The notes beneath the pieces were generated by a model that was given only the letters and a program-made list of their open reading frames with translations, was not told where the DNA came from and did no database searches. A stretch of DNA of 64,000 nt, taken from the NCBI GenBank assembly GCA_965249275.1, contig CBDFLQ010000006.1, forward strand, positions 800,001 to 864,000, in the 5' to 3' direction. The DNA comes from Dehalococcoidia bacterium. Its GTDB lineage: Bacteria; Chloroflexota; Dehalococcoidia; Plut-88900. The translations under genes and the position numbers were made by a program. Of this stretch, positions 8,824-20,997 are shown piece after piece (positions within the stretch are counted from its first letter, which is position 1; every line of letters starts with the position of its first letter).

Positions 8824-10335
8824 CTAGTTTAGCAATTCGTCGATTATCGGACCGAGCTGTCCAGCGGTCAGCGATCCAATCCGCTTGATTGACTGTCCAC
8901 CACTACTAATGATGAAGGCGGGCTGAGTGAAGATGCCGTTGGCTTGCGCGGCGGCTCGGTCTTCTTCCAAGAATTTCTGGTACCTCTGCTCTTCCATGCA
9001 AGCGGTAAATTGGGGCACGTTCAGACCCAGAGTCTGTGCCAAGCTGATCTGGCCTTGGACGCTCCCGGAGCCGCTTCGAATTCGGGCGTCATGAAACTCC
9101 CAGAACTTATCTTGCTCACCGGCGCACTCCGTTCCCAGAGACATGATTCTCGAGGCGGGACCGAAAGTGGTCCGGTGGCGGAGCACCAGCTTTACCTGAC
9201 CTTGGTCTATGTATTGTCGCTTTATCTCCTGGGCCGGTCCAAGGGCCCAATTCCTGCAAACGCCTCATTGAAAGTCGCTGAATTCCTCCAGCGTTACGGG
9301 TGCGTCCAGGGACCCGAGAATGTTCCATGGCCGTCCGGAGGGTAAAGGCTCAGGGGTGGGAATTGGGGTTGGGATAGGAGTTGGCGTAGCAGTTGGGACG
9401 GGGGTTGGAGAGGGAGTCGGGACTGGAGTTGATGAGGCGGAGGGGACTGAGGTAGGAGTTGGGGCGGGTGACGTAGCGATGGGCGTAGGCACAGGCATGG
9501 GGGCGGGGGTCGATGTCGGGACAGGGATTGCAGTAGGTGTTGGGGTTGGTGCAGGAGTCGGTACAGGCGTAGCCAGCAACTCATCAATTACTGCGGATAT
9601 TTCTTCGAAGGAGGGTGATCCGTCGTATTTTGTTCCAGTTTGGTTGGGGTCGGTGGACAGGACGAAGATGGTGGGTGTGACCGAGACTTCGTTCCGCAGG
9701 GCCAGATTTATGTCTCTTTGAATGACGCCGTCGTAGGTTCTGGCTTCCATGCAAGCCGAGAATCGGCCCGTGTCCAGGCCAAGGTCTTCGGCGAACCCTT
9801 CGAGTCTTTCCACCCCTCTGCCGCCCTCGCCCTGTTTTTCGTAAAGAGTGTCATGGTACTGCCAGAAAGAGCCCTGTTCTCCCGCACACTCGGTGGCGTG
9901 GGCCGCCAAGTATGAATCATCGTTGATGTGAGGGAAATGGAAGTAGTTCAGGTTCACCAGCCCGGTTTCGACGTATACCTTCTTTACTTCGAGGGCCGCA
10001 CCACGGGCCCAATGCTTGCAACCGGGTCAGAGGAAGTCGCCGAAATCGGCTATGGACACGGAGGCATCCGACGAGCCAAGGACATTCCAGTCCCGGGTCG
10101 TTGGGGGTGCGTCCTGCGTGGAGTCGGGTGGAGGGGTGTCGGTGGGAGGAGCGTCGGAGGAGGCCGAAGTCGATGGAGGGACGAGGGTGTTAGTGGGGAC
10201 CGGCGCGCCGGTAGATGTAGGATCAACTATCTCAGGGTCTGACGAACAGGCCCATGAAACTATAGCAAGGGTAGTTATACAAAATAGGAGGATGCCGAGT
10301 CGGGTGAATGTCAGGCGTCGGGGGAGAATGGACAT
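8824..10335 (-). CDS. Candidate di-selenoprotein: lipoprotein with two DsbA/thioredoxin-fold domains (DFL-U-PGC and DFQ-U-GVC) joined by a Pro/Thr linker
   Basis: ORFs 10027..10374, 9265..9957 and 8824..9186 share one frame and are separated only by TGA at 10027-10029 and 9265-9267, each at the first position of CxxC. Readthrough gives ...[36 protein letters not shown] and ...[34 protein letters not shown]. Signal peptide ends SWAC; alternative GTG start at 10374. Confidence 0.88.
9230..9249 (-). promoter_or_regulatory. Putative SECIS hairpin for UGA at 9265-9267
   Basis: mRNA UGGGCC-CUUGGACC-GGCCCA starting +16 after the UGA. Confidence 0.7.
9993..10010 (-). promoter_or_regulatory. Putative SECIS hairpin for UGA at 10027-10029
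   Basis: mRNA GGGCC-CGUGGUGC-GGCCC starting +17 after the UGA. Confidence 0.65.
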
Positions 10336-10373
10336 TTGAGAAGACCCGTGTCCCAGCATTGGCGCTCGGGCCA

Positions 10374-11132
10374 CTAGTACGCGGAGCCCAGATATTCGTC
10401 TATGACTGCGGAAACCACGTCGAAGGCGCGTGCCCCGACGAACTTGGTCATCTGATCGCTGCTCAGGATGAAGATAGTTGGCTGCGTGGTTACGCCATCC
10501 TCTCGAGCCTGAGCCAAGTCCCCGTCGACAATGTGCTCATAGGTCTCGTTTTCCATGCAGGCGGTGAACTTGGGAATGTCCAAGCCGATGGTATTGGCAC
10601 GAGCTATTTGCCCCTGGACGCCTATCTCCCTGGTCCGCTCCTGGAATATCGCGTCGTGATATTTCCAGAATTCACCCTGCTCACCCGCACACTCGGTGCC
10701 TTGAGCCATCAGGCGCGATTCGGGACCCAGGACGGCGTAATGGCGGTATTCCACCTTGACCCTGCCGTCGTCCACGTAGGTCGATTTGATCTCCTGGGCC
10801 GTTCCAAGGGCCCAGCGCCTACAGCCGGGTCATTGGAAGTCACTATAGTCCAAGACGGTGACCGACGCGTCCGCCGAGCCGAGGACATTCCATCCCCTGC
10901 CATCAGGGTCAAGGGTGATCACCGATAAGGCAGTCGGTGTGGCAGCGGGCTGGGCCGTGGGGTCAGGGTCGGCATCCGGTGCGGTAGTAGCAGACGGGGC
11001 CTGGGTGGCAGTGGGGTCGGGAGAATCGGTTGATCCGCCACAGGCCCAAGCAGCCCCAGCGACAAGCGCGCAGAGGAGCAACACCACAGCGGGCGCAACC
11101 GTGCGTCGGCGGAGGAGGGCAGACAAAGTCAA
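10374..11132 (-). CDS. Candidate selenoprotein: DsbA/thioredoxin-fold lipoprotein (DFQ-U-PGC)
   Basis: ORFs 10830..11132 and 10374..10775 share one frame; readthrough of TGA 10830-10832 gives LGSADASVTVLDYSDFQ*PGCRRWALGTAQEIKSTYVDDGRVKVEYRH; ECAGEQ-x2-FW and TQP cis-Pro loop; signal peptide with RRR ending AWAC. Confidence 0.88.
10794..10815 (-). promoter_or_regulatory. Putative SECIS hairpin for UGA at 10830-10832
   Basis: mRNA CUGGGCC-CUUGGAAC-GGCCCAG, perfect 7-bp stem starting +15 after the UGA. Confidence 0.72.
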
Positions 11133-11314
11133 GATGCTTGCTTGTACTGGGTCCTGAGGCAGCGGGTGCAGACCTTCATCCGCTGCCGCTTGCCATTTAT
11201 CATCAGCCGCACGGGGTGAACGTTCGGCCTGTACATCCGGGGCGTGTGCCTTTTGGAGTGGCTTACGTTCCTGCCGAAGCGGGGAATCTTGTTACATATT
11301 TCGCACTTCGCCAA
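11129..11314 (-). CDS. rpmB: 50S ribosomal protein L28 (Zn-ribbon type)
   Basis: AKCEICNK...GRNVSHSKRHT...PNV...VCTRCLRT; probable TTG start at 11314. Confidence 0.95.
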   Translation of the reverse strand: MAKCEICNKIPRFGRNVSHSKRHTPRMYRPNVHPVRLMINGKRQRMKVCTRCLRTQYKQAS

Positions 11315-11360
11315 TTTAATCGCCTTTAGTGTAGAATCAGTATCCAAGACGTTAGCATAA

Positions 11361-18202: not shown

Positions 18203-20997
18203 ATGATGGAGAGTGGAAGGTTGGGATTCTGGCCCCGCATTGTATGGAGTGGATCGGCAGTTTTGCTTGTCTTGGCTTTGATATGGGCTTGCGCTCCATC
18301 GCAAGGCACGCCAACCCCGGACTCAACTCCAACGGCGACTACAGTAGCACCGCCAGCTACTGAGATAGTGCCACCGACCGAAGACCCAACGCCGACATCG
18401 GAAGCCAGCCTGACACCTGAGGCGTCTCCGGTGTTGGAGGTTACGCCTGTGCCGATTCCCACAAGCACCGCTGTTCCTACTCCTGCCCCAACAGCTACTC
18501 CGGCGCCAATACCTACACCTACCCCCATTCCTACACCTGTCCCACCTTGCAACCCGGCACAGGTAACAATAGCAGACCCGCATCCGTATAAAGAAATCGG
18601 CCTAGCCTCATTATGGGATCGATTTCCCTGGGCATATTGTGAACTTGTCAAAAGGCCATGGATATCGGAAGGGGGAGACGACCCAAATCACGTTGAACTC
18701 TCAGTATTGCGTTACCTGAGCCAGATGAGGATACCGGATGAGACTACTGCATTTGCATTAATACGCCTCCCGTTTCTGGACACCATTGAGTGGGTGATCA
18801 TGAAACCATGCAGTTCATGGCCGACCTCTCCCATACCGACCCGGATGGCTTAGCGCAACTCCTAACGCACGAATCACTTACATCCGGCGATAACAGCCCG
18901 ATACAGCTAATATATTTGGATGCAAAGCACCCAGATGCCGCAGCGGAAATCGCTGCCCAAGGCTGGGTCAAAGATGGGCTCTATAAGCATGAGTACGAGA
19001 CCCTGACACTTCTACAAGAAGCGGCCATTGGGTCAAACAAGTTCTTCAGATACCTGATGGACAGCGGTCCAAGCTGGATACCTCTGGGAACAGGGGTTGA
19101 TCAGTCAGCGCTTGAGACATTGGTGGCCTGGAGTCTTTGGGATGAAGATACGGTGATTCGCCTGGCTTCCATGCCTTTCTTGGAGACCATTGAATTTGTG
19201 GACGCAGAGGCTGTGCACCGCCTACGGGAGCTAGCGGAGAACAATCCTGATGGTCTACGGAACGTCCTGTCTCACCCAATCTTTGCTGATGGCATCAGAG
19301 ATGAGCTTGCGGTCCAAGTATCACTACTGTACCTGGAACAGACCAACCACGAATTAGCTGCCGCCATAAATGAGCTCCCGTGGATCCAAGACGGCATCAC
19401 TTATGTCCCGCCTCGGGACTGGAGCAACATCAATCCAGATCCGACAGAACATGAAACTACAAATATTCTTGATTTTATCGAAATGGGCATTCAGACCCCG
19501 GATTTCCTCCTAGATCTAACATCCAAGTCCTGGGTTAGAGACGGGCTGAGCGGTGCGGATACAAGCGTAATCAGCCCATTGTTCAATCTCGCAATTAGCG
19601 ATCCCCAAGTAGCAGCTGAGCTGCTGAGAATGCCGTTTCTGGATAGGATAAATCCACAGGACTCAGAAGTGCTATGGACACTGGCCATGCTGACAGAGAA
19701 TAGCTGGGTCCCTCTACAGGAGTTTCTGTCAAATCCGTTACTGGCGGGAGGAATTTCAAACGACAATATTTCCATAGTACAGCTACTTGAAGTAGAGATC
19801 CGGGAGCCCGAGAGATACGCCTCAATAGAAGGTCTGTCCTGGATTCAGGACGGTATTGACGTGTCGGAGGCATACGCGGTTACCGTATTGACCGAGCTGG
19901 CCCTGGATACGGATGCCGTATTCACGGCAGTAATGGAGAAAAACTGGGTAAGGAACGGGCTTACCCGAGAAGAGGCAACAGCGATTTTCCACCTGATAAC
20001 CATGTCAGGGCTATCATGGGGCGAACAGGACGTAGACACCACGCTGAGAATCATAGCCATGCCGTTTCTGAATACCTTTGAACCGGTGGATGCTGCAGCC
20101 GTGGATGGGTTAGCAAGGCTACACCACAATGGTGACGGGGATTATTTACACCAGGTATTGAACCACCCTTCTTTGAGAGACGGCATTGATGATGCAGACA
20201 CTCTGATAGTTGCGGTCCTACCTCATGTTGTAGAAAGAGTGCCAAAAAAGCTGAATATACTGCTGGACCCCGGACAGATTTATCGGCAAGAACGCAAGAT
20301 AATGCTTCCGCTAGCCGGTGAAATAACCGTCGCAACTATCCACACAGTTCCCGGAACATTCAGCACAATGGACATACTGGAAGAAATCGTCCGCCAATAT
20401 GAGGTTTTCATGAACGTGGCCTACCCCAGCAACGTGGCGGCTATAGTTGTTGTAGATTTGGGGGGCCCGAGGGGTGGAGGTGGCCCTAGCGGTATCATTA
20501 CTCTCCACCCGGGTTCTGAAGAGGACGTGGAGCTTATTGCCCATGAGGCTACCCGTACCTATTGGAACTTTTATCCGCCCTGGATTCGAGAAGGCGCAGC
20601 CGAGTTCATGGCGAAAATAGTGATTGGGCAGCTTGACGAAGCACCAGCTTCACCGAGTGAGACGGGATGTAGCCTGGCCAAAACTCTGGGAGAACTAGAC
20701 CAATTAACGTACGGACCAGGCCTTGATGAAGATGCGGTTTGGTGGTCGGGGTGCAGTTACACGATGGGCTTGGGGTTGTATGCGGACTTGTACAACAGCC
20801 TGGGCGATGAAGAGTTCCGGAGAGGATTCGGCGGGCTGTACCTAAAGATGCGGAATGAAGAACACAATGATGAGTGCTTCGGAGTCGAAAGAGGTCTTTG
20901 CTATGCGCGAAAGGCCTTCGTTGAGGATGCCTCACCCGGGTTTGCCGATACCGCCGGAGGGGTTATAGATCGGTGGTACTACGGGGAGTCGCAATGA
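18203..20997 (+). pseudogene. Large Pro/Thr-stalked lipoprotein with helical repeats and a C-terminal gluzincin-like domain, split by a one-base frameshift
   Basis: 18203..18853 and 18790..20997 join as LPFLDTIEW|GDHETMQF if one G is added to GGG at 18792-18794, matching the paralog's LPFLDTIDWGDSNTMRF; HExxH appears as HEATR. Confidence 0.7.

Follow-up and report, generated by a model that had tools for sequence, protein, structure and literature searches.

Conserved hairpins behind three in-frame UGA codons as candidate SECIS elements in a DsbA-like gene pair from Dehalococcoidia

Two DsbA-like genes with in-frame UGA codons

We analyzed a stretch of 64,000 nucleotides from a Dehalococcoidia bacterium (contig CBDFLQ010000006.1, positions 800,001 to 864,000; hereafter, the window) and describe here two neighboring genes, A and B, that carry three in-frame TGA codons between them. 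Each TGA is followed, at one and the same distance, by a hairpin with the same stem core, and we consider it very probable that the three hairpins are bacterial selenocysteine insertion sequence (SECIS) elements in DsbA-like genes encoding selenocysteine (Sec; U in protein motifs). The features concerned are listed below; hairpin energies are those of the hairpins folded in isolation.

10374..11132, minus strand: gene A, a DsbA-like/Thioredoxin_4 protein of 252 aa, translated with TGA as U
8824..10374, minus strand: gene B, at most 516 aa with two Sec codons, translated with TGA as U
10830..10832, minus strand: in-frame TGA, U101 of gene A, aligned with the first cysteine (Cys) of the CxxC motif of homologs
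10027..10029, minus strand: in-frame TGA, U116 of gene B, motif F-L-U-P-G-C (domain 1)
9265..9267, minus strand: in-frame TGA, U370 of gene B, motif F-Q-U-G-V-C (domain 2)
10794..10815 (core 10796-10813), minus strand: hairpin A, CUGGGCC-CUUGGAAC-GGCCCAG, 7 bp, 8-nt loop, -13.1 kcal/mol
9993..10010, minus strand: hairpin B1, GGGCC-CGUGGUGC-GGCCC, 5 bp, 8-nt loop, -8.9 kcal/mol
9229..9250 (core 9231-9248), minus strand: hairpin B2, UUGGGCC-CUUGGACC-GGCCCAG, 7 bp including one G.U, 8-nt loop, -11.1 kcal/mol

The product of gene A begins with a hydrophobic, lipoprotein-like signal with A-W-A-C at its end, followed by a Pro/Thr/Ala-rich spacer and a single Thioredoxin_4/DSBA domain; with TGA taken as Sec, the redox motif of this domain is F-Q-U-P-G-C. 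Gene B, for which a GTG at 10374 is a possible start and an ATG 13 codons further in the more plausible one, opens with a similar signal (S-W-A-C at its end) and continues into two Thioredoxin_4/DSBA domains with a Pro/Thr-rich linker (about 9340-9573) between them. Pfam models recognized both proteins: PF13462 scored 89.7 bits in gene A (E=3.1e-25) and 158.8 bits in gene B (E=1.8e-46, in two stretches) against a gathering threshold of 23.2, and PF01323 scored 30.9 bits (E=2.9e-07) and 50.0 bits, respectively, against one of 25.6. The CxxC-type motif stands at the start of helix 1 in all three domains (UPGC, UPGC, and UGVC), and the reading frame stays open for 146-253 codons on either side of every one of the TGAs. 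In both signals, an Arg-Arg pair precedes the hydrophobic core (P-R-R-L-T-F within 10335-10374 for gene B, L-R-R-R-T-V within 11040-11132 for gene A, both on the minus strand); together with the W-A-C end, this may point to export by a route of the twin-arginine-like or lipoprotein kind.

The pattern TGA-N16-GGGCC-N8-GGCCC has exactly three matches in the window, in each case on the minus strand (9231-9267, 9993-10029, and 10796-10832), against an expectation of 0.01 from dinucleotide shuffles; none of 100 shuffled sequences reached three. An earlier sequence-only reading of this DNA had reported just this palindrome at an identical offset behind all three UGAs, and its account of the loops and of the codons that make up the hairpins (Ala as GCC twice at each site, plus Thr ACG, Ala GCG, and Pro CCG) proved accurate in every detail. 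The presence of a hairpin alone is not rare, because an equally strong one occupies the same range of positions after 51 of the 1807 TGA trinucleotides in the window (2.8%); the rare feature is the identical sequence at the identical offset. B1 is the weakest of the three hairpins, present in the minimum free energy (MFE) structure of a 53-nt context and missing from that of a 66-nt context. A fourth, bare GGGCC-N8-GGCCC palindrome (32793-32810) has no TGA at SECIS distance on either strand; it lies near the end of an open reading frame (ORF) for a PHP-family phosphatase (32058-32891), which overlaps the fabZ ORF (32758-33336).

Conservation among Sec- and Cys-containing homologs

To collect homologous domains, we translated the window and 80 loci in six frames and searched the translations with a profile. 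The loci are the best 80 of 523 confirmed ones from a scan of genome contigs; those encoding two relatives discussed below, P0003 and P0007, are not among them. The search returned 103 domains, in which the Sec column holds a Cys codon (TGC/TGT) 78 times, TGA 21 times, and another codon four times. Three of the 21 TGA sites belong to L001, a 99% identical locus that represents the window's own organism.

The same gene pair is present in three further Dehalococcoidia genomes (L002-L004; 73-75% protein identity), where all nine TGAs are kept. Eight of these nine sites show the exact hairpin pattern and the ninth reads GGCUC, a C-to-U change that retains a G.U pair; at one site, a flanking CAG has become CGG, turning a U-A pair into U.G. 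Across all 12 Dehalococcoidia sites, the 5-bp core is thus identical but for one G.U. In a maximum-likelihood tree, the 12 Dehalococcoidia Sec domains and one Cys domain (L005) form a single clade (support 98), within which the A, B1, and B2 domains each make up a clade of four (support 97-99), with path lengths between paralogs of 1.2-1.5 changes per site at the protein level. These clades of four and the long paths between them place the triplication before the species split. As the copies are paralogs, the three hairpins are not three independent events; the identity of their stems reflects common descent of the domains together with purifying selection, not a lineage-wide sequence rule.

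We compared synonymous codon choice across the four genomes at positions whose amino acid is identical in all four, defining the hairpin zone as codons +4 to +13 from U. Here, the codon is unchanged in all four genomes in 79% of cases, as compared with 97/294 (33%) elsewhere (Fisher p=1.2e-5). By position relative to U, the codons identical in the four genomes are:

Codons -24 to -11: 6 of 24 (25%)
Codons -10 to -1: 16 of 26 (62%)
Codons +1 to +3: 0 of 5
Codons +4 to +13, the hairpin zone: 19 of 24 (79%)
Codons +14 to +23: 10 of 20 (50%)
Codons beyond +23, in three bins: 25%, 26%, and 33%

The constraint peaks on the hairpin, yet extends beyond the hairpin zone. It is also evident from single bases of the loop. 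U27 (numbered from the U of UGA as base 1) falls on a third codon position and comes from Leu CTT or Arg CGT, codons that account for 14% of Leu and 9% of Arg codons, respectively, in the genes of the window. Position 27 is T in 18 of 19 distinct Sec contexts vs 8 of 78 Cys contexts, and position 28 is G in all 19 Sec contexts vs 33 of 78.

Hairpins of -5 kcal/mol or better were found at 17 of the 21 Sec sites vs only two of the 78 Cys sites; at a cut-off of -4 kcal/mol, the counts were 20/21 and 11/78. As far as this comparison was run, it bears out the expectation of the sequence-only reading that the hairpin should decay in Cys-encoding homologs, and L005—the only Cys member nested in the Sec clade—has indeed lost the stem, its peptide reading W-A-R-G-P-G-L. 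The two strong hairpins at Cys sites (L033:5052 and L071:5052, both from Gemmatimonadota; -10.5 and -6.7 kcal/mol, 8 and 7 bp, with 5-nt loops) start 14-15 nt past the Cys codon, which is the SECIS position of the Sec homologs. They could be fossil SECIS elements left after a Sec-to-Cys change, or chance.

Sec homologs outside the clade also carry hairpins. Two Anaerolineae loci (L015 and L060), separated from the Dehalococcoidia clade by a well-supported branch, each contain two TGA domains whose downstream peptides (Y-V-R-E-T-F and V-A-R-E-V-I) are unrelated to those of the window, with hairpins that nonetheless start at the same offset: ACGUC-CGUGA-GACGU at site 1 and GUCGCC-CGUGA-GGUGAU at site 2. 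At the outer pair of the second hairpin, one of the two loci has G-C and the other A-U, an exchange made by two synonymous substitutions and the single compensatory event that we found. A 16-nt spacer combined with a loop starting C-(G/U)-U-G characterizes 16 of 18 aligned Sec sites (without the L001 duplicate). The exceptions are L051, in which the hairpin (GCCUA-CGUGC-UAGGC) lies 4 nt nearer the UGA (12-nt spacer), and L025, in which a longer stem takes in the UGA itself and A-C-U-G-G is unpaired at the same distance from it. Both L015 and L060 additionally encode a third tandem domain (L015:6186 and L060:6177) with Asp or Ser at the first redox position and no CxxC left; judging by sequence, this is a degenerate and probably non-catalytic domain following the two Sec domains.

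Weighing the SECIS interpretation

Each hairpin lies within the coding sequence, 16 nt past a UGA that replaces the N-terminal Cys of the CxxC in a DsbA-like domain. The interpretation of these hairpins as SECIS elements is well supported because the stems and codons are conserved, the Anaerolineae hairpins occur at the same offset, and Sec and Cys sites contrast in hairpin content; it starts from the observed anatomy of the sites and their Sec/Cys alignment, from their conservation in further genomes, from the suppression of synonymous change, and from the equivalent hairpins that other Sec lineages possess. The proposal of the sequence-only reading—a candidate SECIS under RNA-level selection—thus gains from the Sec/Cys pairing, the open frames, the nine of nine conserved sites, the suppressed synonymous change, and the rare codons that fix U27. 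If it is correct, SelB carrying Sec-tRNA(Sec) would bind the apical part of the hairpin, probably including the invariant U27-G28, and would deliver Sec to the UGA in the A site. The products would be secreted or lipid-anchored thiol-disulfide oxidoreductases with UxxC active sites, one in gene A and two in gene B. In E. coli fdhF, SelB binds the apical part of the SECIS hairpin at a fixed distance 3′ of the UGA; the mechanism proposed here is the same, although stem sequence, loop size, and the loop positions of G and U differ from those of the window hairpins.

A number of observations weigh against a SECIS function. In their 53-nt context, the hairpins fold no better than dinucleotide shuffles (z-scores of -1.0 to +0.95), and B1 is missing from the 66-nt MFE structure. 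Resampling of synonymous codons according to window codon usage yielded an equally good or better hairpin in 88 of 5000 cases for A (1.8%), 660 of 5000 for B1 (13%), and 947 of 5000 for B2 (19%), with median best hairpins between -5.0 and -9.1 kcal/mol. Most Ala codons (55%) are GCC, and the peptide W-A-x-G-x-A-Q plus GC-rich codon usage by themselves favor a hairpin; the window has a GC content of 59%. The statement that the stem needs specific synonymous choices therefore stands only in part. Nor did we find covariation within the clade: the Dehalococcoidia set contains no compensatory double change (four of seven pairs are invariant and three vary on one side only), and RNAalifold, run on 93-nt segments, predicted nothing beyond the 5-bp hairpin (covariation term -0.08). 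The signal above chance is one of conservation, not of thermodynamics. Even this conservation is not confined to the hairpin, as synonymous conservation is likewise raised at codons -10 to -1 (16/26) and +14 to +23 (10/20) over a background of 25-33%. RNAalifold found no conserved pairing in these flanking codons; UGA context, a ribosome or SelB footprint, or effects on translation speed are possible causes. As to the Cys homologs, L005, with an identity of only about 40% and a long branch in the tree, is one weak data point, and P0003, the closest Cys ortholog (230 aa, 67% identical) and known from its protein alone, keeps the peptide W-A-L-G-T-A-Q-E within the stretch DFQ-C-PSC-RRWALGTAQE. 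Finally, the 64-kb window contains no tRNA-Sec, selA, selB, or selD, for which reason the Sec trait of the organism is something we infer. ARAGORN likewise reported no tRNA-Sec in the window, and Rfam at gathering thresholds gave three tRNAs only and no match to a SECIS family.

Part of this evidence would suit an explanation in which the palindrome is not itself the recoding signal and simply follows from the way a conserved helix peptide (W-A-x-G-x-A-Q/L), inherited by the paralogs, is encoded in GC-rich codons. The prevalence of GCC, the resampling counts, the shared peptide of the Cys ortholog P0003, the unremarkable folding z-scores, and the lack of compensatory change within the clade are all in keeping with it. 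However, a by-product of the peptide would not be expected to come with suppressed synonymous change at the hairpin (19/24 vs 97/294 elsewhere), nor with fixed rare CTT and CGT codons that keep U27; hairpins occur at the same offset in Sec homologs whose peptides are unrelated (Y-V-R-E-T-F and V-A-R-E-V-I), and the Cys member of the same clade, L005, has none. We therefore regard this explanation as very unlikely. Still more improbable, to the point of being nearly negligible, is that the TGAs are genuine stops—in split genes or pseudogenes, or through assembly errors—or reflect a genome-wide reassignment of TGA, the hairpins being irrelevant in each case. It is true that public gene calls of relatives are cut at the TGA (142 aa in P0004-P0007; 231-236 aa in P0009 and P0010). 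Yet three further genomes keep TGA at nine of nine sites, and it falls only in the column of the catalytic Cys; stops at these positions would sever the domains through their active site. Other genes of the window end normally at TGA (for example, 18790-20997 and 31287-32054), so the codon is not reassigned genome-wide.

Returning to the SECIS interpretation, the hairpins can be set beside the consensus of bacterial SECIS (bSECIS) elements. As given in a figure legend (PMC13188914, Fig. 2, after Zhang and Gladyshev 2005), this comprises a loop of 3-9 nt, a stem of 4-16 bp, a G as first or second base of the loop, 16-37 nt from UGA to loop, and an MFE of -7.5 kcal/mol or lower. The window stem-loops resemble it in lying within the ORF just 3′ of the UGA (16 nt from TGA to core at all three sites), in their 8-nt, G-containing loops and their stems of 7 (A), 5 (B1), and 7 bp (B2), and in a UGA-to-loop distance of 21 nt (the 16-nt spacer plus a 5-nt arm); their energies of -8.9 to -13.1 kcal/mol fall under the limit in that legend. 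They differ in that the stem is an exact GC palindrome common to three sites. With regard to the loop, only B1 (CGUGGUGC, C-G-U-G...) fits the rule of a G at position 1 or 2; as drawn, the loops of A (CUUGGAAC) and B2 (CUUGGACC) begin with C-U (CUUGG...) and have G-G at positions 4-5, a further point against the assignment. Non-canonical pairing inside the A and B2 loops could alter how they fit this rule.

Both the kind of element and the selenoprotein family are already known. In 2005, a study of the Sargasso Sea selenoproteome (PMC1088965) described DsbA-like selenoproteins that have a UxxC motif and a predicted SECIS, and a table in PMC13188914 lists a 'DsbA-like protein form 1' (PF01323) with one Sec. 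The window proteins share with these, as far as those sources describe them, the fold family (PF01323/PF13462), the UxxC motif, and a predicted SECIS 3′ of the UGA. In contrast to the single Sec of that table entry, the window contains a tandem two-domain protein with two Sec beside a one-domain paralog. In NCBIfam, the best match of both proteins is the curated family NF041057 ('Rcas_1661 family thioredoxin-like (seleno)lipoprotein'; cut-off 190 bits), a Chloroflexota-associated family with which they have in common the lipoprotein-like signal and a thioredoxin-like domain with Sec or Cys. Gene B reaches 249.9 bits when summed over its two domains and gene A 147.2 bits, under the cut-off, and by these scores the two are relatives of NF041057 rather than clear equivalogs. 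The locus tag 'Rcas' in the family name presumably denotes a Roseiflexus origin; no paper turned up when the literature was searched in full text for 'Rcas_1661'. The tandem two-Sec architecture and a loop with G at positions 4-5 are modest novelties, and the known picture of bacterial Sec insertion is unchanged by them.

Reach of the motif and consequences for annotation

The GGGCC-N8-GGCCC motif is shown for this paralogous gene family only. The sequence-only reading had gone further, proposing a signature of the lineage that could be used to find more selenoproteins. That the motif at +17, be it exact or relaxed, is a general mark of selenoprotein genes in this Dehalococcoidia lineage is, in our view, unlikely. 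Speaking for it, the spacing and loop start recur across Chloroflexota Sec homologs (the 16 of 18 sites above), and a relaxed motif (TGA, 12-18 nt, a stem of at least 5 bp, a loop starting C[GU]UG) combined with an open-frame filter recovered 17 true sites, with two false hits in 0.48 Mb of Chloroflexota DNA and two in 1.0 Mb of other DNA (both strands). Against this stands that all positives come from one protein family and that the Anaerolineae Sec homologs do not have the exact stem. A covariance model (R1) trained on 12 sites and run over 742 kb including the whole window recovered these same 12 (E<=2.1e-11), the next hit having E=0.47; the Anaerolineae Sec sites were not detected by it. 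There was, moreover, no other credible selenoprotein gene in the window, which covers 64 kb of a 3.43-Mb chromosome, or at L026.

At L026, position 7710 was the sole new open-frame candidate from the relaxed scan of Chloroflexota loci, and we rejected it for its Arg/Ala/Gly/Pro-rich junk translation. Within the window, 130 TGAs have at least 40 open codons on each side, and only the three known sites are in frame inside a real gene. Two read-through candidates on the minus strand (63606 and 54671) gave Gly/Val/Arg-rich, antisense-like translations and were discarded; three more (20995, 32052, and 59146) are ordinary stops followed by in-frame neighbors.

A somewhat less improbable, if still doubtful, idea is that SelB of Chloroflexota reads a SECIS format of its own, with a spacer fixed at 16 nt, a short stem that a C-G pair closes, a loop starting C-(G/U)-U-G, and U27-G28 as the essential bases in place of a G at loop position 1 or 2. 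Were this true, bSECISearch would class such elements as non-canonical, and a phylum-specific model could reveal more selenoprotein genes in Sec-rich Dehalococcoidia. The class is reported to include very Sec-rich genomes: BSepDB (PMC13326102) lists metagenome-assembled genomes of Dehalococcoidia that have 46-49 selenoproteins, and gives 87.4% of SECIS elements as canonical. In the literature on selenoproteins and Dehalococcoidia that we searched, this was the only paper with either term in its title.

Because gene callers cut at UGA, the three Sec sites in two redox proteins with predicted export are left unannotated. The truncated public calls of gene A relatives illustrate this: P0004-P0007 all start with M-A-Q-E, meaning that the caller took an NTG at the position of the Thr/Ala/Pro codon, the one ending in the G with which the 3′ arm begins. 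Judging from these protein sequences, this suggests that the 3′-arm G is kept in P0004-P0007 even where the residue differs. A further relative of gene A, P0008 (on an 8385-bp contig), runs through the hairpin region in another frame and is back in the frame of gene A at T-A-Q-E. A length difference of one base within the SECIS loop or close to it, through a sequencing error or a 9-nt loop variant, would fit this protein, the only form in which we saw it. A query with the full two-domain protein returned no annotated full-length relative with two Sec, only Cys-type multidomain or single-domain proteins, a result that says little since gene callers stop at TGA. If read correctly here, the locus adds a tandem DsbA-like protein with two Sec to the selenoproteome of a Dehalococcoidia lineage, and offers a clean case of an RNA signal that constrains codon and amino-acid choice within a coding region.

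The genes adjoining the pair are of a housekeeping nature (argJBDGH, rpe, yloV/fakA, degV, recG, and argS). Two further features of the window are:

11129-11347, minus strand: an L28-like ORF, read by eye only
36999-38126, plus strand: a transposase gene of the IS481 family (NF033577, 276 bits), about 1 kb downstream of a tRNA-Gly

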